Source of the DNA: a virus
Reading direction: 5' to 3' (one strand)
UHGV virus genome: UHGV-0019120
DNA: 31,192 bases
The translations under genes and the position numbers were made by a program. Within the stretch, counting starts at the first letter, position 1, and the number at the start of each line of letters is the position of its first letter. The notes under the pieces are model-generated. The model made no database searches. It was not told where the DNA came from and worked only from the letters and a program-made list of their open reading frames with translations. Of the stretch, positions 1,329 through 24,227 are shown one piece after another.

Positions 1329-1694
1329 TCACTTCAACTCCTCCCGACGACGTTCCTGAAGCTCTAGCATTGCGGCTCGGAAATCCTGCCACCATTCCTC
1401 ATCGGCTACTGGGGTGTTCCGCTCCAGCACCTTGTCCGCATCGGCGATCAGGTTTGCCAGACTCTTGTCTGAAATCTTCGTTACCGGAGTCGTTGGTTGC
1501 TCAACCTGCCCGATAGGTTTTATCGTGCTCAAAAGGAGGCGACGGCGGGAAAGTGGTGCCCCACAACGACGGCCATCTTCCTTGCGATATGTTTCTTTCG
1601 GACCAACACACCAGGTTGTCGGCGTCTCGCGCAACTTCACTTTTTTCTCACCATCATTGGTAATGATTATTCCGGTATGGGTTTTGATGCTCAT
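1329..1694 (-). CDS. hypothetical protein
   Basis: 121-aa ORF in minus-strand gene chain; no recognisable motif. Confidence 0.45.
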   Translation of the reverse strand: MSIKTHTGIIITNDGEKKVKLRETPTTWCVGPKETYRKEDGRRCGAPLSRRRLLLSTIKPIGQVEQPTTPVTKISDKSLANLIADADKVLERNTPVADEEWWQDFRAAMLELQERRREELK

Positions 1695-1993
1695 GCCACA
1701 GCCCCTCTCAACGGCTTAACTTTGGCTAATAAGGTGTTAAACAACATGGAGTTAGGATTCATGCCAAATGGCAATTCCGGTTTAGCGGAGTAGTACAGGC
1801 AACCATTTATTTTCCTGGTTGTTATCTGTCCTTCGGCAACCATGCTTCTCAGTCTGCAACGCATAGAGTTCTGCGACACACCAATGTGCTCCGCGATTAC
1901 GTCCACTTTTGAACATGGGTGATCGGTCAGGAAATTAATCACATCTTGGGGGTTAATAATTTTGCGTTTCATTGTCGAGGCGTCCTTATACAT
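1691..1993 (-). CDS. putative winged-helix DNA-binding protein
   Basis: 100-aa ORF; central segment VDVIAEHIGVSQNSMRCRLRSMVAEGQI resembles a wHTH recognition helix and wing; AT-rich TATA-motif promoter region directly upstream (1994-2018). Start may be the internal MKRK. Confidence 0.45.
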   Translation of the reverse strand: MYKDASTMKRKIINPQDVINFLTDHPCSKVDVIAEHIGVSQNSMRCRLRSMVAEGQITTRKINGCLYYSAKPELPFGMNPNSMLFNTLLAKVKPLRGAVA

Positions 1994-2016
1994 TTGTATA
2001 AATATATAATTCTATA

Positions 2017-2040
2017 TACGGCGGGAGACGTCCCGCCGTA
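2017..2040 (-). terminator. hairpin downstream of the 2050..3117 gene
   Basis: 10-bp perfect stem TACGGCGGGA / TCCCGCCGTA with 4-nt loop right after the stop at 2050; following tract is A/T-mixed, not a clean U-run. Confidence 0.4.
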
Positions 2041-2049
2041 GGCTTACTG

Positions 2050-3117
2050 TCAGGCTTTCAATAGCGATTCTTTTAGATATCGGGCATCAGCCAGGGCGTT
2101 TGGAGTAATCTTGCGAACCCATGCATTACGGGTTGGACTCCACTTAAAGGCGCGTGATTTAAGCAGCGAACGAATGTTTGCCTCTGGTTTGCCAGGGAAA
2201 TAAAACAGGATGCGGTTATCCTCTGGATCTATCTCCATAGAAAAGCCGTCGTATTCTTCGCGCTGTGCTCCTGTTACAGACTTGACCGATTCAAGCTCCT
2301 TAATACGGCTCTGTAGTCGTTTGATTTCGGCGTTATTGTTGCTCAGTGCGTATGAAGGGAATCCGATGCGCCCACAGAAATCTCCGGCCAGTAACTCTTT
2401 GGCTTCGCTTTCTGTAAACCTGAGATCGATTAATGCAGAAAGCTGCTGTATTTGGTCTTTTTTGTATTTGCGAATGGCCTTATTTGCGGCCTTCATTTTG
2501 ACGTGTGACTTCATGCAGCCTTGCAGCTTACGAAGCAACTTAAATAGCGCATCAGGATCATCAGACGAAATTCCATTACGACCAACACCTGCGGCTTTGC
2601 TCTCGTAGTGTGATGCTTTACTTTCGCATTCAACAAACGCTTTTCTGAATAACGCATCAGCTTTAGACAAACGGCGGCGATGGCCTTTCGCGCTATAATG
2701 GTCAACTAAAATCGGCTGGCCTAACGGGATCACATCCAACAGGTCATGCGCTCGCTTATGCGCTACCGCACCTTCTTTTCTGGCTTTTTCTGCACAAGCA
2801 ATATATCGGGCAAGACGCGCGTTCTGGCGTTCCTGATAGGTGTTTACGTAATCATCTCCGCGCTGCTGCTGTTCAAGCCATGCTTTGCGCAGATCTTCTG
2901 TTACGTCCACCAGCTCCGCAGGGATACAACCAGTTTGGGCTTCATAAGAGTAACCATCCTCATAGATACGCCCATCGTCTTCAACAAAGAAAAAGGTTTC
3001 GTGCTCATCGCTTTTGACCATACGACCATTAACATGGCGTAATAGGTAGCCAGTATCAGTGCTTAACAGGCTGTTAGGGTTGTTGATCCAGTCAGAAATA
3101 ATTACTTGTTTATTCAT
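2050..3117 (-). CDS. hypothetical protein, possibly DUF3560-like
   Basis: ORF track gives 373 aa to 3171; I place the start at ATG 3117 (MNKQVI...) because a GGAG RBS lies about 6 nt upstream and the duplicated promoter block begins at 3124. C-terminal FYFPGKP...FKWSP...W motif recalls DUF3560; unverified. Confidence 0.5.
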   Translation of the reverse strand: MNKQVIISDWINNPNSLLSTDTGYLLRHVNGRMVKSDEHETFFFVEDDGRIYEDGYSYEAQTGCIPAELVDVTEDLRKAWLEQQQRGDDYVNTYQERQNARLARYIACAEKARKEGAVAHKRAHDLLDVIPLGQPILVDHYSAKGHRRRLSKADALFRKAFVECESKASHYESKAAGVGRNGISSDDPDALFKLLRKLQGCMKSHVKMKAANKAIRKYKKDQIQQLSALIDLRFTESEAKELLAGDFCGRIGFPSYALSNNNAEIKRLQSRIKELESVKSVTGAQREEYDGFSMEIDPEDNRILFYFPGKPEANIRSLLKSRAFKWSPTRNAWVRKITPNALADARYLKESLLKA

Positions 3118-4000: not shown

Positions 4001-4401
4001 TTGGTATCCCCTGGTACTTCACCAAGACTAAGATCAAACCCAATTTCGTCTTTAACTGACTGCGGCAACAGCTCCCACGTCTGCGCACACAAAAATTCAT
4101 CTGTGCCATAACGCTCAACAAAGCGAGCACAATTACTCAGGGGAGGGTGACGAACGGCAATATGCGGAGGCACACGCCCACCACCAGGCACAACACCGCG
4201 ATGATGTGGTGCGCACAACCCAAAGCTATGGAAGTGGCAATTCTCATCAACGCTGCCGTAATCAGGATCGTGATGTAGCTCCGTCCACAGCTCTGGATTC
4301 TCAATTTCACGGCCATCAATAATGCAAGCTATGCAACCCACGTGAGTGAGCACCGCTTGTATATAAAGTTTCTCTTTCTTCGTTGGTGTACGTCCGTTCA
4401 T
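3997..4401 (-). CDS. Cys/His-rich nin-region-like protein (possible nuclease)
   Basis: 134 aa with CxxC ... HH ... CHFH ... C..HH clusters suggesting metal binding; position matches lambdoid nin genes. Family uncertain. Confidence 0.4.
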   Translation of the reverse strand: MNGRTPTKKEKLYIQAVLTHVGCIACIIDGREIENPELWTELHHDPDYGSVDENCHFHSFGLCAPHHRGVVPGGGRVPPHIAVRHPPLSNCARFVERYGTDEFLCAQTWELLPQSVKDEIGFDLSLGEVPGDTK

Positions 4402-4634
4402 CAGCGCCCCTTACCATTGATAAAGAGGTTGAACTCGTTGATTAACTGGACATACATGCTTCTGGCCGCGTAGTTCTTTGCCAGCTCTTTACGGGATGAG
4501 ATCCCGCAAAACTCACGCAGAATCACAGAGGCCTCAGAACTGTTTGAAACGTTCTTCCCTGTTTTACTGGTCAGAAAGCGCCAGAATTGGGGATTCTGGC
4601 AATGCATCGCAGCACCGCGAACATAACTACTCAT
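4401..4634 (-). CDS. hypothetical protein
   Basis: 77-aa ORF translationally coupled to both neighbours (1- and 4-bp overlaps). Confidence 0.35.
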   Translation of the reverse strand: MSSYVRGAAMHCQNPQFWRFLTSKTGKNVSNSSEASVILREFCGISSRKELAKNYAARSMYVQLINEFNLFINGKGR

Positions 4635-5146
4635 TGATGGCCCCCGTCATTTCTGGTGCTTTTCACCGTGCGGCTTCTTAAAAACCTGCCATCACGAACA
4701 ACAGACACTTCTCGTTTACCCAACCTCATTTCACGGCGGTAACATTCAGAAAATGCCTCGTCCGGCATCATATAAATGCGACGCTTCGCCTCCGTATCCA
4801 GAAGGGAACGGCTTGGGGTTACATATAAGAACGACTCATCAATAGGGACAAAACCACGAGCAAGAATTGCTGGCAGAATACCAGGAAGAACGCAGAAAAC
4901 AGCTCCACGATGCAGCAACATCTGGTACTCCATGACCTCCGTAATCCCCGTAACGACTGTTACGGTGTCACGTCTGTTACGGCTGGCAACCAGTCGCTGC
5001 ACACCTCCAATTTTCTGCTCTACAGATAGACGTTTGCTATCGTTATCAATATGATCGATAACAAATCCTTTAATCGTTTGATCAAGGTAGTGCACCACCT
5101 GCGATTGAATCTGGTGATTATCACCAAAGAAGGCCAGAATCATCAT
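4631..5146 (-). CDS. hypothetical protein
   Basis: 171-aa ORF inside the minus-strand operon; no motif recognised. Confidence 0.45.
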   Translation of the reverse strand: MMILAFFGDNHQIQSQVVHYLDQTIKGFVIDHIDNDSKRLSVEQKIGGVQRLVASRNRRDTVTVVTGITEVMEYQMLLHRGAVFCVLPGILPAILARGFVPIDESFLYVTPSRSLLDTEAKRRIYMMPDEAFSECYRREMRLGKREVSVVRDGRFLRSRTVKSTRNDGGHQ

Positions 5147-5637
5147 TCCTCAAGCCTCCCAAGTGCTGAACGCCGGGCGTTGCTAATCTCCTTATGAATC
5201 AGCTCGATATCGCTGGAATCTTTATTCTTAAGCTCCAGCACGGTAATCGCATCACGAACCTCTGAAACGGTTACGTGTGAGTGTTTCCAGCGAGCAATGA
5301 ATCGCGGACCGCGTAGATTGCAACGCTCCGCAGGCATCCCCAGCTCAGAGAAAACCGCTTTCAGCCTTGATAAGCAGTTAACAGGGAGATTCCCTTTGAT
5401 CTTGTTCTGCCGAACCGATGTGCCATCGCTACGCTGGCGCTGACGTTCGGCAAAATCTGCCGCCCATTGCTGGACGTTAATCCGGCCTTCCGAATACGCC
5501 ACCAGCAGCGTCAGGTTATCCGCACGAGGGAATCTCTCGAAGCGATACCAGGCACCAATCAGTGATGACGTAAAGCCAAACTTTCTGGCAACACCAATTT
5601 GGCCTCCATTTTCGTCAACCCACTCCTGAAAGGTCAT
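5143..5637 (-). CDS. putative Cro/YdaS-like HTH regulator with C-terminal extension
   Basis: 164 aa; N-terminal GGQIGVARKFGFTSSLIGAW...P resembles the YdaS/Cro-type HTH; transcribed divergently from the CI-like gene with shared operators. Confidence 0.45.
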   Translation of the reverse strand: MTFQEWVDENGGQIGVARKFGFTSSLIGAWYRFERFPRADNLTLLVAYSEGRINVQQWAADFAERQRQRSDGTSVRQNKIKGNLPVNCLSRLKAVFSELGMPAERCNLRGPRFIARWKHSHVTVSEVRDAITVLELKNKDSSDIELIHKEISNARRSALGRLEE

Positions 5638-5656
5638 TTAACGAACTCCAGTTAAA

Positions 5657-5774
5657 ACCACGATACGTGGTATTAAAACCACATATCGTGAGTTTTTCAA
5701 TGGGCGAAACAAAAAATAACCTTCTATTTGTGGTCCACCTCTCGTCTTACCATGTGAAAACCACTAAATGTGGT
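5657..5774. promoter_or_regulatory. operator cluster in the divergent immunity promoter region
   Basis: ACCACGATACGTGGT (5657-5671), imperfect ACCACATATCGTG (5678-5690), half-site TTTGTGGT (about 5727-5734), ACCACTAAATGTGGT (5760-5774); all follow ACCAC-N5-GTGGT. Confidence 0.6.
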
Positions 5775-5811
5775 AATGTATAAATAACCCACCATTCACG
5801 ATTGATGAGAC

Positions 5812-6468
5812 ATGAAAAGCAACGACGAGAACATCAAGAAAGAAATAGGTCTGCGCATTCAGACTCTACGGAAACAATCCGGCATGACTGCCGGAGATCT
5901 CCAGCAAGTCACTGGAATAGGCTTAAGCACCTTGCAGAACTATGAGGCCGGATTAAGACAACCATCTATACCTGCCATCAAGAAAATCGCGCACGCCCTG
6001 AAAGCATCAGCGCCTTATATCGCGTGCTTAACAGATAACCCGTTCCCACCCCAGAATACTAACGCTCCTGTTATTCCTGGGCTTGTAGCTATAAAAAATG
6101 ACATAGCATCGCACGCCGGAGAAAAGCCAGTGCTGGCGATAGAACAGGAGATTCTACGAAGCAAGAACATCAACCCATCGTCTCTGTCAGTTCTCCAGAG
6201 CAACGATGAGTTAATGTCACCAACAATATCCCCAGGCTCCCAAGTCCTGATTAATACAGACGATACAGAGATTCATGAGGGGATCTATGCCCTTGAAGAC
6301 AGAAATGGCCTGGTTGTTTTGAGGCACTGTAGAGTCATACCGGGTGACAATGCTGTTATGCTGTCAACCGAAAGGGATGCTGAAATGAACACTAAGCATC
6401 TGAATAACGAGGAATTTAAGCGTTATAAAGTTCTTGGCCGCGTAGTTAGTGTTGTCAACTGGTTATGA
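5812..6468 (+). CDS. CI/LexA-type prophage repressor (HTH_XRE plus S24-like C-terminal domain)
   Basis: 218 aa; N-terminal HTH (LRKQSGMTAGDLQQVTGIGLSTLQNYEAG), C-terminal LMSPTISPGSQVLIN and FKRYK...GRVVSVVNWL resembling the LexA/CI Ser-Lys autocleavage domain. Confidence 0.75.
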   Translation: MKSNDENIKKEIGLRIQTLRKQSGMTAGDLQQVTGIGLSTLQNYEAGLRQPSIPAIKKIAHALKASAPYIACLTDNPFPPQNTNAPVIPGLVAIKNDIASHAGEKPVLAIEQEILRSKNINPSSLSVLQSNDELMSPTISPGSQVLINTDDTEIHEGIYALEDRNGLVVLRHCRVIPGDNAVMLSTERDAEMNTKHLNNEEFKRYKVLGRVVSVVNWL

Positions 6469-6510
6469 TACACAGCACGGCGAAAGCCGTGCATTTCTAC
6501 GCTCAAAAAA

Positions 6511-6525
6511 ACCACATTTTGTGGT
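6511..6525. promoter_or_regulatory. operator copy downstream of the repressor gene
   Basis: AAAACCACATTTTGTGGTTTT palindrome (core 6511-6525) adjacent to TTGACA at 6528. Confidence 0.5.
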
Positions 6526-6560
6526 TTTGACAACATGTAAAAGTATAAAAGAGGCTACGC

Positions 6561-6939: not shown

Positions 6940-6959
6940 AAGCGGGCTAACGCCCGCTT
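6940..6959 (+). terminator. hairpin after the 124-aa ORF
   Basis: AAGCGGGC-TAAC-GCCCGCTT stem-loop; downstream tract only moderately T-rich. Confidence 0.4.
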
Positions 6960-6960
6960 A

Positions 6961-7062
6961 TATGATTATAGATTTATATAATTATATAAAACGCTTTTCA
7001 TCAGCCAAAAAGTTGGTTATGCTTACCTCGTTCTATAAATATAGATTTATAGAATTATATAA
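6961..7062. promoter_or_regulatory. centromere-like / operator repeat arrays upstream of parA
   Basis: Two AT-rich blocks (6961-6988, 7033-7062) carrying TATAGATTT / TATAGAATT 9-mers, partly as direct copies offset by 8 bp. Confidence 0.5.
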
Positions 7063-7085
7063 CCAAACACATGGAGTCTCGACAA

Positions 7086-7739
7086 ATGACTATCTCTGTA
7101 GGTATTTTCAACGGAAAAGGCGGCGTAACCAAATCAACAATTGCCCGTGCTTTAGCAGTTGCTTATGCAAAGGCTGGCTGGAATGTATGCCTGATCGATA
7201 TGGATGTGCTTAACGGAACGGTAACGCGTTGGGTACAACGCAGAATGGCCAACAATATCGAACCAGCAATCGCGGCGCAGCCGTGCGGCACACCATCACA
7301 AGTCCAGAAAATCATCGAATCAGAAGTATACGACCTGGTTATCGTCGATGGCGGTGCCTACGCATCTGAATCAGTACCGAAGCTATCTGAATTTCTGGAT
7401 ATGGTTATTTTGCCAACCCGATTCTCTACCGATGACCTGGAAACCACCGTTAACACTGCTCACGGCATCGTTAAAAAGGGTGTACCAATCAAGAAAATTT
7501 GCATGGTGTTTTCCGGCGCGGCTGAAAACGAAGCTGACTATATTGAAGCCCAAGAGTACCTGGCTAATACGCCATACTTTGTTGTCGATAAGTACATTCC
7601 CCACAAGCCAGCTCTGAGCAAAGCTCAGGATAAGGGCTTAAGCCTCATTGAGTGCTCATACGTTGCGCCACGCAAAAAGGCAGACGACGTTATTCAGGGG
7701 ATTATCAACCAGCTTGAGGCTCTGACTACTGCCGCATAA
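7086..7739 (+). CDS. parA: ParA/ParF-type partition ATPase
   Basis: Deviant Walker A FNGKGGVTKST, A-prime motif VCLIDMD, B-like DLVIVDGGA; start placed at ATG 7086 (GGAG RBS) rather than track start 7071. Confidence 0.8.
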   Translation: MTISVGIFNGKGGVTKSTIARALAVAYAKAGWNVCLIDMDVLNGTVTRWVQRRMANNIEPAIAAQPCGTPSQVQKIIESEVYDLVIVDGGAYASESVPKLSEFLDMVILPTRFSTDDLETTVNTAHGIVKKGVPIKKICMVFSGAAENEADYIEAQEYLANTPYFVVDKYIPHKPALSKAQDKGLSLIECSYVAPRKKADDVIQGIINQLEALTTAA

Positions 7740-7770
7740 TATATAATTATAGTTTTATAGATTTATATAA
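7737..7770. promoter_or_regulatory. TATAG(T/A)TTT repeat block upstream of the RHH gene
   Basis: TATAGTTTT and TATAGATTT direct copies offset 8 bp, between parA stop and the next start. Confidence 0.45.
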
Positions 7771-7782
7771 GAGGGGATACAC

Positions 7783-8031
7783 ATGGCCGCACCATCAAAA
7801 CCACCAAAGAAGAACAGCAAAGGCGTACCGCCATCGATCGAACAACCGCAGGTTTTCGACCCGACTGAAACGCCAACCAGAACCAAATCAGGTGGGGCAC
7901 AAATGGCGTTTAACGTCGACCCTGAATTTAAACGCGAGTACAAAACGTTCGCCAGCTCAATGGATATGTCATTGAAAGAAGTGCTGACAAAGTCTTTTGA
8001 GTTACTCAAGGCTCAATACAACCAGAAGTAA
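7783..8031 (+). CDS. putative ParG-like ribbon-helix-helix centromere-binding protein
   Basis: 82 aa; disordered basic N-terminal tail then MAFNVDPEFKREYKTFA...MSLKEVLTKSFELL, a beta-strand/helix/helix RHH pattern; directly downstream of parA; AGAGGGG RBS. Confidence 0.55.
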   Translation: MAAPSKPPKKNSKGVPPSIEQPQVFDPTETPTRTKSGGAQMAFNVDPEFKREYKTFASSMDMSLKEVLTKSFELLKAQYNQK

Positions 8032-8093
8032 GAGAAGGTGACGGCCTCCAGCGCCAACTGTTGGCCGTCGCGACACAACAAGGGGAATTTGTT

Positions 8094-8243
8094 ATGTCCG
8101 AGCAACAATATACACGGTTACTGAAAACTCGTCTAACCGACCTCAAACGGCTGCAAGCTGGTCGCTTATTTGCCCTGCTATCCACCAGGCCAGAATGGGT
8201 ACGTGAAGCAGTTCTGAAAGGCTTAATGCGCTCCAGCGTTTAA
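8094..8243 (+). CDS. hypothetical small protein
   Basis: About 49 aa from ATG 8094 (MSEQQYTRL...), AAGGGG RBS; track ORF 8061..8243 starts upstream. A palindrome GCCAACTGTTGGC lies just upstream. Confidence 0.3.
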   Translation: MSEQQYTRLLKTRLTDLKRLQAGRLFALLSTRPEWVREAVLKGLMRSSV

Positions 8244-8252
8244 ATTCAACCA

Positions 8253-8276
8253 TAAAAAAGGCCCCCGAAGGGGCCT
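8253..8276 (-). terminator. intrinsic terminator for the minus-strand small gene
   Basis: GGCCCC-CGAA-GGGGCC hairpin; A6 on the plus strand gives a U-run on the minus strand. Confidence 0.55.
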
Positions 8277-8281
8277 AATCG

Positions 8282-8404
8282 CTACTTGCTGCTAATGTTT
8301 ATCGTCACATTCAGAGCGTTATCAGTAATCTTCCAACCCTCCCCATGTGGCGTAAACAAAGCCCCAGTAACAACGATAAAAATACACATACAGTATTTTT
8401 TCAT
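8282..8404 (-). CDS. small hydrophobic peptide (about 40 aa)
   Basis: MKKYCMCIFIVVTGALF... with AAGGG RBS and own terminator; track ORF 8282..8464 is longer. Confidence 0.3.
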   Translation of the reverse strand: MKKYCMCIFIVVTGALFTPHGEGWKITDNALNVTINISSK

Positions 8405-8802
8405 TGTATGGCCCTTACAGGCCGTTTCACGGCATCCCCACCGACGAAAACAACGCGAGAGCAAGCACGGCTGCTTGTGCTTGCATGTACGGCAACGGAG
8501 AATCCTCCCCTAAAGTCGGTGCCCGGGTGCGAATCGGCGGGAAGGTCCACAGGTATTTTACGATTATTTTAAGATTAGTAATAGGAAAGAAATTAAACGA
8601 AAAAACTCGTTTATTTTCACAAAATCAGTAACCTACCCACAATCTGTGAGTTTGCAGGCACAACAAGAACCACAATTTTTTGAAGCATAATAGTGGACTA
8701 TTATTACCTTTTGGGTAAAATTAACTTGCTGCTTGTGCTTGCGTGGTTGTTTATACAACGACGTTATGCTGAAAGGACCGCGAATCCGATCAGCACGAAA
8801 GA

Positions 8803-8828
8803 ACCGTCCTCAATAGGGCGGTTTTTTT
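8803..8828 (+). terminator. intrinsic terminator within the non-coding region
   Basis: ACCGTCCT-CAAT-AGGGCGGT stem (one G-U wobble) followed by T7. Confidence 0.5.
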
Positions 8829-8883
8829 GTTTCTGCCTACCAATAAACCCACGCTATGTGGTTGTCTCTGTTAAAATCCCGCC

Positions 8884-8994
8884 GTATTGACATGAATGCG
8901 CCATTGGTGGACACTTTCCGAGCCGTAGCAAAATCTACGGTCGGGATTGGAACCCCGTAGACACAATGGCGCATACCGCGTTAGCGGTTTTTTT
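8884..8994 (+). ncRNA. candidate structured small RNA (c4-like antisense regulator)
   Basis: Extended -10 TGtTAAAAT near 8866-8874; 9-bp outer stem 8898-8906/8964-8972 enclosing two hairpins, one with loop ATTGGAAC; ends at short hairpin plus T7 (8975-8994). No ORF. Confidence 0.35.
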
Positions 8995-9160
8995 ATGCGT
9001 AAAGCACTGCTACACCCAAATTATGGTGGGGCGTGCGGGGGAGTCGTAAGACTCGCCGGTTCGTCATTGTGTCCGGTAGTTCCAACCCTGCACGTCTCAC
9101 CACCCAATGATTGGAACCTGACGGTGGTGAGTATCCTTAACCTTTAAGGGAATCATCACA

Positions 9161-9352
9161 ATGACAAACCTACCCCATGACTATTACGTCAACCTCGTAA
9201 AGATCCTTCTCAAGAAAGCCTCATACGCCGATAAATTCCGCCTGGCTGAAATCATCGAGCGCGAAGCTATGCGCATCGCCAGCAACGATAACGCTGTTTC
9301 TGACGCAAAAATCTCCCTCGTAACCAAAGTAGTTATGGGAGGTGCAAAATGA
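9161..9352 (+). CDS. small protein translationally coupled to the antirepressor (icd-like position)
   Basis: 63 aa; AAGGGA RBS; stop overlaps start of the next gene (ATGA-type overlap at 9349-9352). Confidence 0.4.
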   Translation: MTNLPHDYYVNLVKILLKKASYADKFRLAEIIEREAMRIASNDNAVSDAKISLVTKVVMGGAK

Positions 9353-10494
9353 AAACGCTTCCGACCGTTAACACCCTACAGCCTATCCTGCATAACCAAA
9401 TCCCTGTCATTACTACCGAGTTACTAGCACAGCTTTACGGCACTGAGCCGGTGCGTATTCGCCAGAATCATCATGAGAACAAAGCACGTTTCGTTGAAGG
9501 GAAACACTTTTTCAAAGTTGTTGGTAATGACCTTAAAGAATTGCGGGTAGCTTTAAACTACTCTCAAAATCCAGTTTCACCTAAAGTCCGCTCCCTCATC
9601 CTCTGGACAGAACGCGGGGCTGCACGTCACGCTAAAATGCTCGAAACCGATCAGGCGTGGGATGTATTCGAACGGCTGGAAGACTGCTACTTCAACCAGA
9701 ACGCGCAAACGGCCGCGACCGTAACCGTCTCACCAAACAATGCTCGTGAGGTTGTCGATACGCTCAACGCTAAACCAATGTATTACGTTAAGGTGTGCAA
9801 CAACGAGCCACTCACAACCTCAGCCGATGTTGCCCAGGCATTCAGCACCACAAACAATTCCATCGTTATGGCCATCGATGCGTTACGCATTCCTCGCACA
9901 GCTGCGGCGCGTCACTTCTTTAAAGAACAACGACCGCTGGAAGGAAGCGACCGCGAAATAACAATCTATCGCATGACAAAAGACGGATTTACCTTGCTCA
10001 TGGAAAGTATCGACGGTCCAGGCGTGAAGGATATCAAGCTGGCCTACATTGAAGCCTTTAACGCTATCAGCAGCATGTTAAAGGCAGAATACGAGCGAAT
10101 GCTATACAACCGACTGTATCAGGAAACAAAGATTATCCGAACGGCAACAGAACATCATCGGCTATTAACGGAACCAAACTACCGCAAGACACTAATCAAA
10201 GAGTTTGACAAGGCGACGGAGAAAACTAAAGCGGCACTAAATCTACCAACAATGACTAAAGATGATGTGATATCAGCCTTACTTCTTGATCTGCTCAGAA
10301 ACGTCAGAGCACTTATCAGTTTTGACGAAAACCTGAATCCTCAGCTCAAGCTACTACCACCGACAGGCAAAGTAGTCGACCAGGCTGATCACAACAGCAT
10401 ACTCAGCGTTCTGGATGCAAACCTGCCAGCCAGGACACTACAGGATCTGATAAAAACATGTGCTGATAAGCTGGCACAGAAAAGCAGACCATAA
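9349..10494 (+). CDS. phage antirepressor / regulatory protein (ORF6N-like plus Rha-like domains)
   Basis: 381 aa; N-terminal ITTELLAQLYG...EGKHFF...ILWTERGAARHAKMLETDQAWDVFERLEDCYF resembles ORF6N; central TTSADVAQAF...YRMTKDGFTLLM...IEAFN resembles Rha. Confidence 0.7.
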   Translation: MKTLPTVNTLQPILHNQIPVITTELLAQLYGTEPVRIRQNHHENKARFVEGKHFFKVVGNDLKELRVALNYSQNPVSPKVRSLILWTERGAARHAKMLETDQAWDVFERLEDCYFNQNAQTAATVTVSPNNAREVVDTLNAKPMYYVKVCNNEPLTTSADVAQAFSTTNNSIVMAIDALRIPRTAAARHFFKEQRPLEGSDREITIYRMTKDGFTLLMESIDGPGVKDIKLAYIEAFNAISSMLKAEYERMLYNRLYQETKIIRTATEHHRLLTEPNYRKTLIKEFDKATEKTKAALNLPTMTKDDVISALLLDLLRNVRALISFDENLNPQLKLLPPTGKVVDQADHNSILSVLDANLPARTLQDLIKTCADKLAQKSRP

Positions 10495-15639: not shown

Positions 15640-15675
15640 ATCTGGTCATTTTCCAACCAGACACCCACAATCATA

Positions 15676-15690
15676 ACCACGTTACGTGGT
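15676..15690. promoter_or_regulatory. CI-type operator palindrome upstream of repA
   Basis: ACCACGTTACGTGGT, same ACCAC-N5-GTGGT architecture as the immunity operators; abuts a minus-strand TATGAT -10 candidate. Confidence 0.5.
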
Positions 15691-16105
15691 TTTACGAGAA
15701 CTCTACCACAACACTTTCGGTCATGCACGAAGTCTCTCACTGATCGAACGATAATCCACCAGTAAAAGGATCTAAATTGGATCTCGTTTTGCGAGCATCA
15801 TACTACTGGCCTAACTCCAGTCAATGATTCCCAGCCAGAAACCTGCGGTAAACTCATCGTTCAGCAATATGCTGTCCGGCTTCAAAGATAAGGTGACATC
15901 ATCCCTTAACAGCGCGGCCAGTTCAGTTAAAGGGCTGTTCTGATTTAATGCTGGCCACTCATACCTGGTAATAAGTGGTCAGTCTTAACACTCACCATTT
16001 GATTGCACCCGTGTTGACGATTTGTTACTGGATATCAGACACGCTGGATAGCCAGTAGAAACATACCATTAAAATTATTACAATAATTGGTCACATGATT
16101 ATCTT

Positions 16106-23225: not shown

Positions 23226-24227
23226 TTAATACCCATTAATTACTCTTCGGACATCAATCGAGGTGGTATAACCACTAGTCCCAATTGAATGCACAGCTTT
23301 CGATATAAGATATTTTCCAGAAAATGAACCGAATCCCTCCAGATTTATAGTTACACCAGCTACCAATCTGGTGTCTCCAACCAATACTAAAGATCCGGTA
23401 TTTTGATATCTATTTTTAAGCCGCAAAGCAGCCTTTGCCTTACGTTTTGCTTCATCTAAATTAGCTACCAGTTTTCTTATCTTAAGATTCGACCCTTCTT
23501 CTACGGATGGATCTACCCAAGTATACGAAAGCGACTTTCTTTTTTTAGGTACGCGATATTTGCACGTGCAACTTTTATACAAATCTGTAGATTGTGTGCT
23601 AAAGCTATATCTGATTATCTCATCAATACCTAACGTAAGCGTAGCGATAGGATCTTTTTGCTCAAACATCTCTTGAGCAAATATTATTAATTGGCTATCA
23701 GTGACCTTTAACGACAACCCTTCATCCTGGCAAAGTCGATGGAGAAATTTTAAATCGCTTTCCTCCATTTGATCTTCACGCGCATAATATGGATTACTAT
23801 CACCATCAATAAGAAACAACAGTTCAAGGTTAGCTAATTTAGCTATAGAAGTTGCTATATCTTTAAGAGTTGTTTTTTCCCATGCATTACTTTTTAAATC
23901 ACGTCTAATGCCTGATGAAATAGGAACAGAAACAGCAGTTACCTCAACCACAGAAGGTGGTCCAGAGCAAGTTATGCCATCTACCTGGAATTTCCCGCAC
24001 TCAAGGACGATTTGATTTATAGGCTTAAAGCTCAAATCAATAAAATCACCCTTTTTAGGTGTCCAGTCTCCAGACCATTTCCCATCATCATTTTTTAATA
24101 TAATAGAAATATCATCGACCTGACCATCTTCATTATCTGTATAAGACATTGACAAAACATCAGGTGACATATGAGCGGTAATATTTACATTCTGATATAT
24201 AACATCAAAAAGCGTTTTACGTAACAC
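23226..24227 (-). CDS. putative gpD-like baseplate hub protein
   Basis: 333 aa after the X-like gene; assigned by position and size. Confidence 0.55.
   Translation of the reverse strand: MLRKTLFDVIYQNVNITAHMSPDVLSMSYTDNEDGQVDDISIILKNDDGKWSGDWTPKKGDFIDLSFKPINQIVLECGKFQVDGITCSGPPSVVEVTAVSVPISSGIRRDLKSNAWEKTTLKDIATSIAKLANLELLFLIDGDSNPYYAREDQMEESDLKFLHRLCQDEGLSLKVTDSQLIIFAQEMFEQKDPIATLTLGIDEIIRYSFSTQSTDLYKSCTCKYRVPKKRKSLSYTWVDPSVEEGSNLKIRKLVANLDEAKRKAKAALRLKNRYQNTGSLVLVGDTRLVAGVTINLEGFGSFSGKYLISKAVHSIGTSGYTTSIDVRRVINGY

Follow-up and report, generated by a model that had tools for sequence, protein, structure and literature searches.

The segment 8847-10494 of the virus genome UHGV-0019120, of which we analysed a stretch of 31,192 nucleotides (the window), is probably an immI-type module for control of an antirepressor, in which a C4-based off-switch works together with an a1/b1 decoy; it is part of a 47-49 kb E. 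coli/Yersinia phage-plasmid. Judged from its sequence, the element is an ordinary, unannotated copy of the P1-type C4 antisense RNA module. Both of its RNAs are already known as curated Rfam families, with isrK and C4 matches above the cut-off. The family membership and structures of the two RNAs, the six complementary sites, their co-evolution and the gene layout are directly supported by the data described below. The original prediction had assigned the region to the c4/immI-type family from same-strand bipartite pairing ahead of a small ORF and the antirepressor coupled to it, and our analysis bears this out.

The module was found in 2199 of 5426 complete E. coli genomes, with up to 7 modules in a single genome. 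The RefSeq plasmid pECO-b75, which is 100% identical, carries no annotated feature over the counterpart of window positions 8031-9161, in agreement with the earlier statement that no credible ORF lies in front of the operon. This 1.1-kb stretch, blank in RefSeq, corresponds to four RNA genes, namely ryfA/timP, a TimR-like sRNA, an IsrK-like leader and C4. The region has been wrongly annotated elsewhere as "ash family protein".

The C4 RNA

The Rfam C4 model (RF01695) matched the window at 9019-9107 on the plus strand over model positions 1-87 of 87, with 77.8 bits against a cut-off of 45. This segment has a minimum free energy (MFE) of -46.6 kcal/mol (z -5.7), and equal stability was reached in none of 200 shuffles. 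Its MFE fold is the Rfam C4 consensus, in which a long outer stem (17 bp, 9024-9040 with 9086-9102) encloses two hairpins, the second carrying b' in a 13-nt loop, and a' is unpaired 3' of the second hairpin. The b' element (9058-9072, plus strand) consists of the hairpin 2 loop TTCGTCATTGTGT (9060-9072) and two stem bases, and pairs with b1 and b2. The a' element (GTTCCAA, 9079-9085, plus strand) lies single-stranded between hairpin 2 and the outer stem, and pairs with a1 and a2. The CATTGTG within the b' loop was unique to the window among the 89 C4-bearing sequences examined. Two reading frames across C4 were rejected as coding: a 50-aa ORF (8995-9147) that spans the RNA had no PHROG match, and an orf45-like frame from the conserved AUG (9023) runs into a stop after 8 codons in the window.

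These results change the identity of the regulator. An RNA of ~100 nt ending at 8994 had been proposed as the antisense RNA, whereas the regulator is C4 at 9019-9107; with the Rfam match at this position, the target that had been claimed for it (9065-9086) is therefore the regulator's own b' loop and a'. The single stable fold at 9019-9107 had been overlooked. A covariance search against c4 models, which had been suggested as a check, thus gave a C4 match, but at 9019-9107, and the c4-a1b1 model stayed under its cut-off.

The leader RNA and its terminator

A promoter precedes the module on the plus strand at 8887-8915 (-35 TTGACA at 8887-8892, a 17-nt spacer, -10 GACACT at 8910-8915), with a predicted start at ~8922. 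Its geometry is that of Gifsy-1 (TTGACA, 17 nt, TATATT, 6 nt, then isrK position 1). A simple promoter scan did not call it because the -10 element is weak, and inspection by eye revealed no LexA box near it.

The leader RNA that would follow (8922-8994, plus strand) is a homolog of IsrK and c4-a1b1, with hairpin 1, hairpin 2 carrying a1 in its loop, b1, and an intrinsic terminator. The isrK model (Rfam RF01394) matched exactly this segment over positions 1-77 of 77, with 67.7 bits against a cut-off of 50, and the features of the family, two 5' hairpins and an intrinsic terminator, were present. The c4-a1b1 model (RF03163) reached 38.8 bits against 46.7 (E 3.7e-8, 8909-8961). Part of this model, which P1, D6 and VT2-Sakai pass, spans the -10 region, divergent in the window, and the region it covers here passes the overlapping isrK model. 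The terminator (8975-8994, plus strand; ACCGC-GTTA-GCGGT followed by T7) had been predicted correctly and was found both by a separate terminator scan and as the terminator hairpin of the isrK model. Synthesis of C4 and of the mRNA must involve read-through of 8975-8994. A hairpin and T-run between b1 and C4 occurred in 15 of 15 annotated phage loci, P1 included, and a comparable one in nearly all 44 rows of the alignment (A1), variant L019 being the exception.

A compact multi-hairpin structure had also been described at 8898-8972. The hairpins within 8922-8957 are indeed the two isrK / c4-a1b1 hairpins, but the 9-bp outer stem (8898-8906 with 8964-8972), although present in the DNA, was rejected as an RNA structure. 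Its 5' arm lies inside the -35/-10 spacer, upstream of the likely transcription start at ~8922, which is homologous to the start of Gifsy-1 isrK, and the stem shows no covariation, since the sole change, in variant L001, shortens it. Similarly, of the two terminators proposed for the region both are real, but the one at 8803-8828 does not belong to the module. Folding showed a terminal hairpin followed by a U-run (unit 8728-8835, z = -5.65), and this terminator is part of a TimR-like sRNA in a neighbouring, unrelated TimR/ryfA-type toxin-antitoxin pair. Rfam matches to RNAI (26.1 bits) and Phe_leader (22.9 bits) at 8707-8830 were far under their cut-offs, and are due to the terminator hairpin of this TimR-like RNA.

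Six complementary sites on one strand

The complementary blocks of the original prediction were located in the sequence at 8945-8953 (GATTGGAAC), 8961-8969 (ACACAATGG), 9065-9072 (CATTGTGT) and 9079-9086 (GTTCCAAC), so its coordinates (8945-8969 against 9065-9087) were right within 1 nt. The bipartite pattern TTGGAAC-N(5-35)-CACAATG had two matches in the 31-kb window, at 8947-8968 on the plus strand and, as the complement, at 9065-9085 on the minus strand; 0.02 were expected in shuffles, and none of 100 shuffles contained two. The plus-strand match comprises a1 (TTGGAAC, 8947-8953), the complement of a', and b1 (ACACAATG, 8961-8968), the complement of the b' loop, which shows compensatory changes in variants L001 and L137.

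The second pair of sites lies downstream of C4 on the same strand. A third copy of TTGGAAC had been noticed in the loop of a hairpin, and we found it there: a2 (9111-9117) is in the loop of the hairpin at 9096-9131, formed by CTCACCACC, which is also the 3' arm of the C4 outer stem, with GGTGGTGAG, and is complementary to a' at 7 of 7 positions. The b2 site (CACAATGACAAACC, 9157-9170), which had been overlooked, pairs at 13 of 14 positions with 9058-9071 and lies over the first three codons of the 63-aa ORF, with the ATG at 9161-9163. The translational target had thus been half seen; the site that repression has to occlude is a2 together with b2 over the ATG. In most variants b2 ends 10-13 nt 5' of the ATG and adjoins or overlaps the Shine-Dalgarno sequence; it overlaps the ATG in the window and in L001, and in the window variant the start codon is that of a non-Icd first gene.

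In duplex predictions with the a'b' elements, a1/b1 was the best non-self site in the window (-29.4 kcal/mol), while a2/b2 (-22.0 kcal/mol) ranked at about the top ten of 12,450 windows and was not unique; the a':a2 duplex alone had an energy no better than that of shuffled loops. Because duplex energy alone does not single out a2/b2, the case for these sites rests on their position and on covariation.

Covariation of the a and b sites

Among 44 distinct variants, a1, a' and a2 covaried strongly, and likewise b1, b' and b2. For a1:a', 94.1% of cells were paired and 80 carried double changes, compared with 19.7 in shuffles; for a':a2, 91.2% were paired and 76 carried double changes, compared with 20.8. 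In neither case did any of 500 shuffles reach as high a value, and the signal collapsed when the a-pair alignments were slid by 1-3 columns. The specificity of the 44 variants was also apparent in match length, which averaged 13.6 nt with the own partner versus 7.8 nt with foreign ones for the a sites, and 14.9 versus 8.5 nt for the b sites. The stem of the a2 hairpin (the C4 3' arm with GGTGGTGAG) was 90.6% paired, with a covariation score (0.072) equal to that of shuffles (0.072), and this hairpin remains a case of conserved complementarity only.

We compared 8880-9175 in the window with the corresponding regions of vB_YpM_39 and vB_YpM_41. Differences among these near-identical phage-plasmids fell mainly at a1/a'/a2 and b1/b'/b2 and were compensatory; vB_YpM_39 shares a with the window but not b, and vB_YpM_41 differs in both. 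Single elements (L085, L046) carry two or three orthogonal cassettes in tandem. One reading, which we hold tentatively, is that the two-block a/b code acts as an addressing system, in which a and b are swapped independently within a phage-plasmid lineage to give separate anti-immunity groups, and in which the terminated a1/b1 leader (IsrK) is a general decoy that titrates the cognate C4. The specificity of the window (a' GTTCCAA, b' CATTGTGT) allows predictions about cross-repression and cross-induction of antirepressors among related phage-plasmids and prophages.

The antirepressor operon and a possible repressor input

The first gene of the operon is a 63-aa ORF (9161-9352, plus strand) that occupies the position of P1 icd without being homologous to it. 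It matched PHROG 7886 over its full length (E 2e-47) and has 39 homologs, down to 60% identity; BLASTP found no similarity to P1 Icd, and the NCBIfam Icd-like model, which matches the Icd proteins of P1 and D6, did not match it. The second gene (9349-10494, plus strand) encodes a 381-aa antirepressor with Pfam ORF6N (4.7e-20) and Phage_pRha (4.4e-12) domains and matches to PHROG anti-repressor families. The stop codon of the 63-aa ORF and the antirepressor start share an ATGA, as in icd/ant1 of P1, and BLASTP found no similarity of the antirepressor to P1 Ant1. A P1-like protein cargo was rejected, as neither protein resembles Icd or Ant1. By these comparisons P1 and the window share the RNA module, not the cargo proteins, and Icd/Ant is a feature of the P1 operon rather than of the RNA family.

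As main repressor the window encodes a CI/LexA-like HTH protein (5812-6468), for which the S24 peptidase match was weak. A palindrome that resembles an operator (8847-8863, ACCCAC-GCTAT-GTGGTT) shares its motif with sites around the CI-like repressor gene: AACCAC-N5-GTGGTT occurs with 0-2 mismatches at 5656, 5677, 5759, 6510, 8847, 15675 and 23946. The 5-nt spacer gave this real motif, whereas a search with a 6-nt spacer did no better than chance. The palindrome is kept in two related phage-plasmids, and homology with them starts there. By its motif, 8847-8863 is a possible repressor input to the module. The combination of the RNA switch with a lambda-type CI repressor, which had been pointed out, is not unusual: the nin regions of VT2-Sakai and PhiR12_1 contain the same module, as do other Stx-converting phages.

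Proposed mechanism and alternatives

C4 processing, the translational block, Rho polarity and the decoy role are taken by analogy from P1 and Gifsy-1, and on this model the module would work as follows. The promoter (-35 at 8887-8892, -10 at 8910-8915) would start the leader at ~8922, and most transcripts would end at 8975-8994, giving an IsrK-like RNA of ~73 nt with a1 in a hairpin loop and then b1. Read-through transcripts would hold C4 (9019-9107), which is probably excised as a stable, tRNA-like stem-loop RNA; in the P1 system, mature C4 is cut from the operon transcript, with RNase P acting at the 5' end. The C4 b' loop and single-stranded a' would pair with a2 (9111-9117) and b2 (9157-9170), and this pairing would mask the start codon of the 63-aa ORF and block its translation. 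The overlap between the antirepressor start and the 63-aa ORF stop may couple the two genes, and the untranslated leader would also be open to Rho; because coupling and Rho exposure would keep the antirepressor off, the plasmid-prophage would stay repressed. The a1/b1 RNA would compete for C4 because it carries the same two blocks as the target, and as an anti-antisense decoy it may turn the operon on when it rises relative to C4.

Three other mechanisms were weighed against this one. If control were exerted by termination, in the style of P4 CI RNA and N15 CA RNA, C4 would act on nascent a1/b1 to enforce the stop at 8975-8994 or a later Rho-dependent stop, thereby limiting its own synthesis and that of the operon, and a2/b2 would be secondary. 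The terminator hairpin lies 6 nt past the end of b1, a1/b1 is the best predicted C4 site, all 15 annotated loci that we examined contain the terminator-like hairpin and T-run, the module also stands beside the protelomerase gene of a phiKO2-like (N15-family) phage, and the Gifsy-1 authors themselves raised the analogy (PMC4825925). Nevertheless, covariation is as strong for a2 and b2 as it is for a1 and b1, and nearly all variants have a2 and b2 at the Shine-Dalgarno sequence or the start codon, which indicates selection for a translational target, and we consider termination unlikely to be the main mode of control. The termination and translational layers are not mutually exclusive.

The original version of the switch, in which a c4-like repressor RNA lies upstream and ends at 8994, with 9065-9087 as its mRNA target in front of the ribosome-binding site, is quite improbable. 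It invokes a pairing that does exist and that no other in the window exceeds in strength (-29.4 kcal/mol), and the homologous IsrK does act in trans, as an sRNA that binds precisely at this site (PMC4825925). However, 9065-9086 lies within a full-length C4 match that folds very stably, and the covariation of a2 and b2 at the ribosome-binding site with the same loops would be left unexplained. Moreover, 8922-8994 is the a1/b1 leader, and its homolog IsrK is an activator in Gifsy-1, where it raises antirepressor translation 139-fold in trans (PMC4825925).

A purely cis-acting switch, in which the read-through transcript toggles between intramolecular a1b1:a'b' pairing and separate IsrK and C4 folds with no diffusible C4, is a possibility because 8922-9180 has the cis-paired form itself as its MFE structure (-100.5 kcal/mol, z -4.6), and this form corresponds to the translationally silent 'structure A' of Gifsy-1 (PMC4825925), but we find it hardly credible: P1 c4 acts in trans and sets heteroimmunity, according to a review (PMC12197685, citing Citron and Schuster 1990), STnc1160 builds up as a stable RNA of its own (PMC4825925, bioRxiv 10.1101/787010), and orthogonal specificities in one element, with up to 7 modules per genome, are sensible only with encounters in trans.

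Translational repression by C4, relieved by the a1/b1 decoy, is thus the reading that we prefer. For general biology it adds little, as the mechanism was solved in P1/P7 in 1990 and the RNAs are already in Rfam. Its practical value lies in annotation, the phage-plasmid family being common in clinical E. coli.

Comparison with known systems

All 15 phage loci that we fetched, among them P1, D6, VT2-Sakai, P88-like phages and a phiKO2-like phage, had isrK/a1b1, C4, a2 and then b2 at the ribosome-binding site. The immI region of P1/P7, for which Citron and Schuster reportedly established in 1990 the order a1 b1 - c4 - a2 b2 - icd - ant1/2, resembles the window in having all six sites in the same order on one strand, and the C4 and c4-a1b1 Rfam models match P1. 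The two also share a terminator-like hairpin between b1 and c4, a2 straight after C4, the ATGA overlap and a plasmid-prophage host. A further parallel may be extra repressor control, through the palindrome at 8847-8863 in the window and Op51 in P1. The window differs from P1 in its a/b sequences, which represent another specificity class, in the position of b2 over the start codon instead of the Shine-Dalgarno sequence, in a first ORF that is not Icd, in an ORF6N and Rha antirepressor unrelated to Ant1, and in a CI/LexA-like HTH main repressor instead of P1 C1.

P4 CI RNA (seqA-seqB-seqC) and N15 CA RNA are, by their descriptions, also small RNAs processed from the leader of the operon that they control, with complementary sites up- and downstream, in plasmid-prophage or satellite-phage contexts, and the phiKO2-like (N15-family) phage has the same isrK and C4 pair as the window. 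Unlike the translational block proposed here, these systems are said, from work by Ravin et al. in 1999 and by the Deho/Ghisotti laboratories, to act through premature transcription termination. In the window, too, an intrinsic terminator follows b1 directly. IsrK has been called a structural homolog of P4 SeqA (PMC4825925).

The isrK - STnc1160/orf45 - anrP region of Salmonella Gifsy-1 (Hershko-Shalev et al. 2016, PMC4825925) resembles the window in having isrK and C4 matches at equal spacing, one promoter that gives a short terminated RNA and a read-through mRNA, and an antirepressor downstream. It differs in that b2 directly abuts the anrP Shine-Dalgarno sequence, and in that orf45 runs from the conserved AUG in the C4 5' arm through C4 to the anrP start, whereas in the window a stop closes this frame after 8 codons and the first gene is a distinct 63-aa ORF. 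In Gifsy-1, IsrK activates antirepressor translation, and trans-activation of the read-through mRNA by the short isrK form, like Hfq binding, is described for this prophage only (PMC4825925). Gifsy-1 lysogens contain large amounts of both IsrK and STnc1160, which occupies the C4 position (bioRxiv 10.1101/787010). The authors ascribed activation to orf45 translation, not C4 titration, and did not treat STnc1160 as a C4 repressor (PMC4825925); if IsrK is a general C4 decoy, titration of C4 would include the published 'orf45' mechanism as one particular case. Two IsrK base pairs verified by experiment, G28-C162 and G31-C159 (PMC4825925), join a1 to a', and their numbering carries over to the window (G8949-C9083). 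Mapping the Gifsy-1 IsrK mutations onto a1 and a' joins two literatures that are still separate in a 2025 review (PMC12197685).

The complementary blocks belong to an isrK-like leader and a C4 RNA

A scan of the whole window with Rfam at curated thresholds gave three matches: C4 antisense RNA (RF01695) at 9019-9107 (+), full length, with 77.8 bits against a cut-off of 45; isrK (RF01394) at 8922-8994 (+), full length, with 67.7 bits against a cut-off of 50; and ryfA (RF00126) at 8550-8254 (-), with 141.8 bits. A more permissive scan also placed c4-a1b1 (RF03163), described as "a1, b1 targets of C4 antisense RNA", at 8909-8961 with 38.8 bits, under its cut-off of 46.7 (E 3.7e-8). The original prediction of a c4/immI-type switch, which had suggested such a covariance search, was right about the family but wrong about the roles of the elements.

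The sequence features it listed were all found, at most one base off. The blocks are GATTGGAAC (8945-8953, a1 region), ACACAATGG (8961-8969, b1 region), CATTGTGT (9065-9072, b' region) and GTTCCAAC (9079-9086, a' region), all on the plus strand. The pattern TTGGAAC-N(5-35)-CACAATG matched twice in the 31,192 bases, at 8947-8968 (+) and, as the complement, at 9065-9085 (-); shuffles gave an expectation of 0.02, and none of 100 contained two matches. The RNA ending at 8994 had been taken for the antisense RNA and 9065-9087 for its mRNA target. Because the C4 match spans 9019-9107 (+), the supposed target lies inside the antisense RNA itself, as its b' loop and a', and the RNA ending at 8994 is the upstream a1/b1 leader that matches isrK. 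In this leader a1 occupies the loop of the second hairpin and is followed by b1 and then by an intrinsic terminator, and a consensus terminator scan recovered the terminator at 8975-8994.

Folded alone, 9019-9107 adopted the Rfam C4 consensus structure, with a 17-bp outer stem, a first hairpin and a second hairpin with a 13-nt loop (9060-9072), at -46.6 kcal/mol (z = -5.7; 0 of 200 shuffles equally stable). In this fold b' (CAUUGUGU) lies in the 13-nt loop and a' (GUUCCAA, 9079-9085) is unpaired. The b' motif CATTGTG was absent from the b' loops of all other C4-bearing sequences (89 examined). That 8470-9160 holds no credible ORF agrees with the RefSeq plasmid pECO-b75 (E. coli ECONIH1), which is 100% identical to the window over 8700-9360 and whose annotation is blank over the stretch matching 8031-9161. 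The C4 module of the window is an unannotated copy of a known, very common kind.

The downstream target and the antirepressor operon

The a2 site is the third TTGGAAC (9111-9117), which folding places, as originally predicted, in the loop of a CTCACCACC / GGTGGTGAG hairpin (9096-9131). It is the 3' arm of the C4 outer stem that is also complementary to the conserved downstream GGTGGTGAG; across the 44 loci compared below this complementarity was kept in 90.6% of cells, with nearly invariant bases. The hairpin may represent another folding state of the transcript before processing, or a means of presenting a2.

The b2 site, CACAATGACAAACC at 9157-9170, had escaped the original prediction. It pairs at 13 of 14 positions with GGTTCGTCATTGTG at 9058-9071, and it spans the ATG (9161-9163) of a 63-aa ORF, a conserved phage protein of unknown function (PHROG 7886, E 2e-47) with 39 homologs, down to 60% identity. 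The stop of this ORF overlaps the start of a 381-aa protein in an ATGA at 9349-9352; the larger protein has ORF6N and Rha domains and matches many PHROG anti-repressor families. The antirepressor is a single intact ORF in the window (9349-10494) and in Yersinia phage vB_YpM_39, and is annotated in pECO-b75 (NZ_CP009861, locus 4150-5319) as a partial ORF6N pseudogene plus a Rha family regulator.

The paired sites have co-evolved

Fifteen phage loci were collected by DNA similarity, from P1, D6, VT2-Sakai and other Stx phages, P88-like P2-family phages, phage cdtI, a Salmonella phage, two Klebsiella phages and vB_YpM_39, a close relative of the window. All 15 have the order isrK/c4-a1b1, about 25 nt, C4, a2, and b2 at the ribosome-binding site, followed by a small ORF or the antirepressor itself. 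In one Klebsiella phage, which is phiKO2-like, the module adjoins the protelomerase gene. Viral contigs scanned with a pattern contributed another 120 loci. In all, C4 hairpin 2 could be parsed in 89 sequences, which between them show 44 different a'/b' combinations drawn from 16 a cores and 34 b loops. In these variants, the longest exact complement of the C4 a'/b' averaged 13.6 nt in own versus 7.8 nt in foreign flanks for a, and 14.9 versus 8.5 nt for b. On a MAFFT alignment of the 44 variants, 94.1% of a1:a' cells were paired, with 80 double-change cells against 19.7 in shuffles (0 of 500 as high) and a covariation score of 0.664, compared with at most 0.168 when the partner columns were slid. 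For a':a2 the values were 91.2%, 76 against 20.8 (0 of 500 as high), and 0.631 compared with at most 0.066.

Over 8880-9175, most of the differences between the window, vB_YpM_39 and vB_YpM_41 fall at the six pairing sites, and there they are compensatory. The window has TTGGAAC at a1/a2, GTTCCAA at a', ACACAATG at b1, CATTGTGT at b' and TCACAATG at b2; vB_YpM_39 shares its a sites and has TCATCATGG, CCATGGTGA and TCACCATG at b1, b' and b2; vB_YpM_41 has TTGGCGT at a1/a2, ACGCCAA at a', and TCATCATG, TCATGATGA and TCATCATGA at b1, b' and b2. P1/P7 heteroimmunity rests on specificity switching of the same type (PMC12197685).

The contig IMGVR_UViG_2671181028_000005 (locus L046) carries three tandem isrK-C4-ORF cassettes on its reverse strand (1430-3010, 656-nt period), each with its own self-consistent a/b set (a sites CGCAG, TTGGCGT and TTGGAAC; b sites GATCAAGG, TCAACATAG and GCATACGG), and a second locus (L085, 7730-8650) carries two. 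A single element can therefore harbour orthogonal C4 specificities side by side.

Comparison with Gifsy-1

In Gifsy-1 (NC_010392, minus strand, locus 34076-34316), isrK occupies 34316-34240, and the C4 model matches 34214-34131 with 69 bits. We placed its sites by reading the sequence with the numbering of Hershko-Shalev et al. (PMC4825925). G28 and G31 fall in a1 (UUGGCGU) and C159 and C162 in a' (ACGCCAA), so the compensatory mutants of that study, G28A/C162U and G31A/C159U, test the a1:a' pairing. The numbering is identical in the window, where nt 28 is G8949, paired with nt 162, C9083. A107 is the A of the conserved AAUUAUGG at the C4 5' end, and orf45 is the frame that runs from the conserved AUG there through C4, a2 and b2 to a TGA overlapping the anrP ATG. 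In 24 of the 44 variants an orf45-like frame contains no stop within the 120 nt examined past C4, and in one locus (L012), read by eye, it continues in frame into the ATG of the downstream gene; in the remaining variants a stop closes it after 3-45 codons (8 codons in the window). Gene callers name such ORFs 'ash family protein' (PF10554).

In Gifsy-1, short IsrK RNA supplied in trans raised anrP translation 139-fold, and a stable RNA, STnc1160, lies downstream of IsrK; the authors likened the system to P4 seqA/CI (PMC4825925). Both RNAs are abundant in Gifsy-1 lysogens (bioRxiv 10.1101/787010).

Proposed mechanism

The sequences show the anatomy of the module and the co-evolution of its sites, whereas we infer C4 processing, a translational block and a decoy role for a1/b1 by analogy with the P1 model (Citron and Schuster 1990, as summarised in PMC8198154 and PMC12197685). 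C4 would be freed from a read-through transcript, and its b' and a' would pair with b2 and a2, occluding the start codon of the 63-aa ORF and so preventing coupled translation of the antirepressor; the blocked transcript would presumably be left exposed to Rho. The terminated a1/b1 RNA displays both of these blocks as well and would be expected to titrate C4, which would account for the activating effect of IsrK.

Several points weaken the model. The duplex energy with the C4 elements is better for a1/b1 (-29.4 kcal/mol) than for a2/b2 (-22.0 kcal/mol), and among 12,450 windows the a2/b2 value ranks no higher than roughly within the best ten. The -10 hexamer of the module promoter is weak. In the MFE fold of 8922-9180 (-100.5 kcal/mol, z -4.6), a1b1 is paired with a'b' in cis. 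Gifsy-1 has an analogous silent form, "structure A", and pairing in cis may therefore coexist with pairing in trans. There may also be a P4/N15-type termination layer at 8975-8994.

Neighbouring elements

The ryfA match corresponds to a ryfA/timP-type type I toxin mRNA (8254-8550, -) that adjoins a divergent sRNA of about 100 nt (8728-8831, +). At its 5' end (8728-8745) the sRNA shares 17 of 18 nt with 8470-8487, which makes it antisense to the 5' part of ryfA. The sRNA ends in a strong terminator at about 8797-8831 (z -5.65 for the fold of 8728-8835), and the pair fits the published TimP/TimR arrangement (PMC7667032). The first terminator of the original prediction (8803-8828) thus exists, and is explained by this TimR-like sRNA.

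AACCAC-N5-GTGGTT palindromes with 0-2 mismatches occur at 5656-5672, 5677-5693, 5759-5775, 6510-6526, 8847-8863, 15675-15691 and 23946-23962; with up to three mismatches there are 20 matches versus 11.3 expected. They are grouped around the CI-like repressor gene, with one 24 nt upstream of the C4-module -35, and are probably the operators of the repressor. Just 3' of the 8847 palindrome, an extended -10-like TGTTAAAAT (8869-8877) could be a second, repressor-controlled promoter, whose transcripts would take in the outer stem of the original prediction. AT-rich, TTATAGATTTATATAA-like repeats in an 8-nt register, partly inverted, lie at 6953-7070 and 7739-7778 on both sides of the ParA gene (7071-7739) and are likely partition (centromere) sites.

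Host element and comparison with P1

The window is a member of a 47-49 kb E. coli phage-plasmid family with a P2-like tail module, RepA and ParA, related to the Yersinia pestis phages vB_YpM_39, 41 and 44. Its main repressor (5812-6468) is of the HTH type and matches S24 peptidase weakly. The combination with a lambda-type CI repressor, noted in the original prediction, is not special, because VT2-Sakai and PhiR12_1 carry the same RNA module in their nin region and other Stx-converting phages have it too. Of 5426 complete E. coli genomes, 2199 contain similar sequence, at up to seven places each; RefSeq leaves it without annotation, names it "ash family protein" or includes it in a Rha regulator.

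In P1 the first ORF is Icd, which the 63-aa ORF of the window is not, and the window's antirepressor is unrelated to Ant1. The b2 site covers the ATG in the window, a geometry also found in three other loci (L001, L100 and L133), whereas in most variants b2 lies beside or overlaps the Shine-Dalgarno sequence and ends 10-13 nt before the ATG. The window thus differs from P1 in cargo and address, not in kind.
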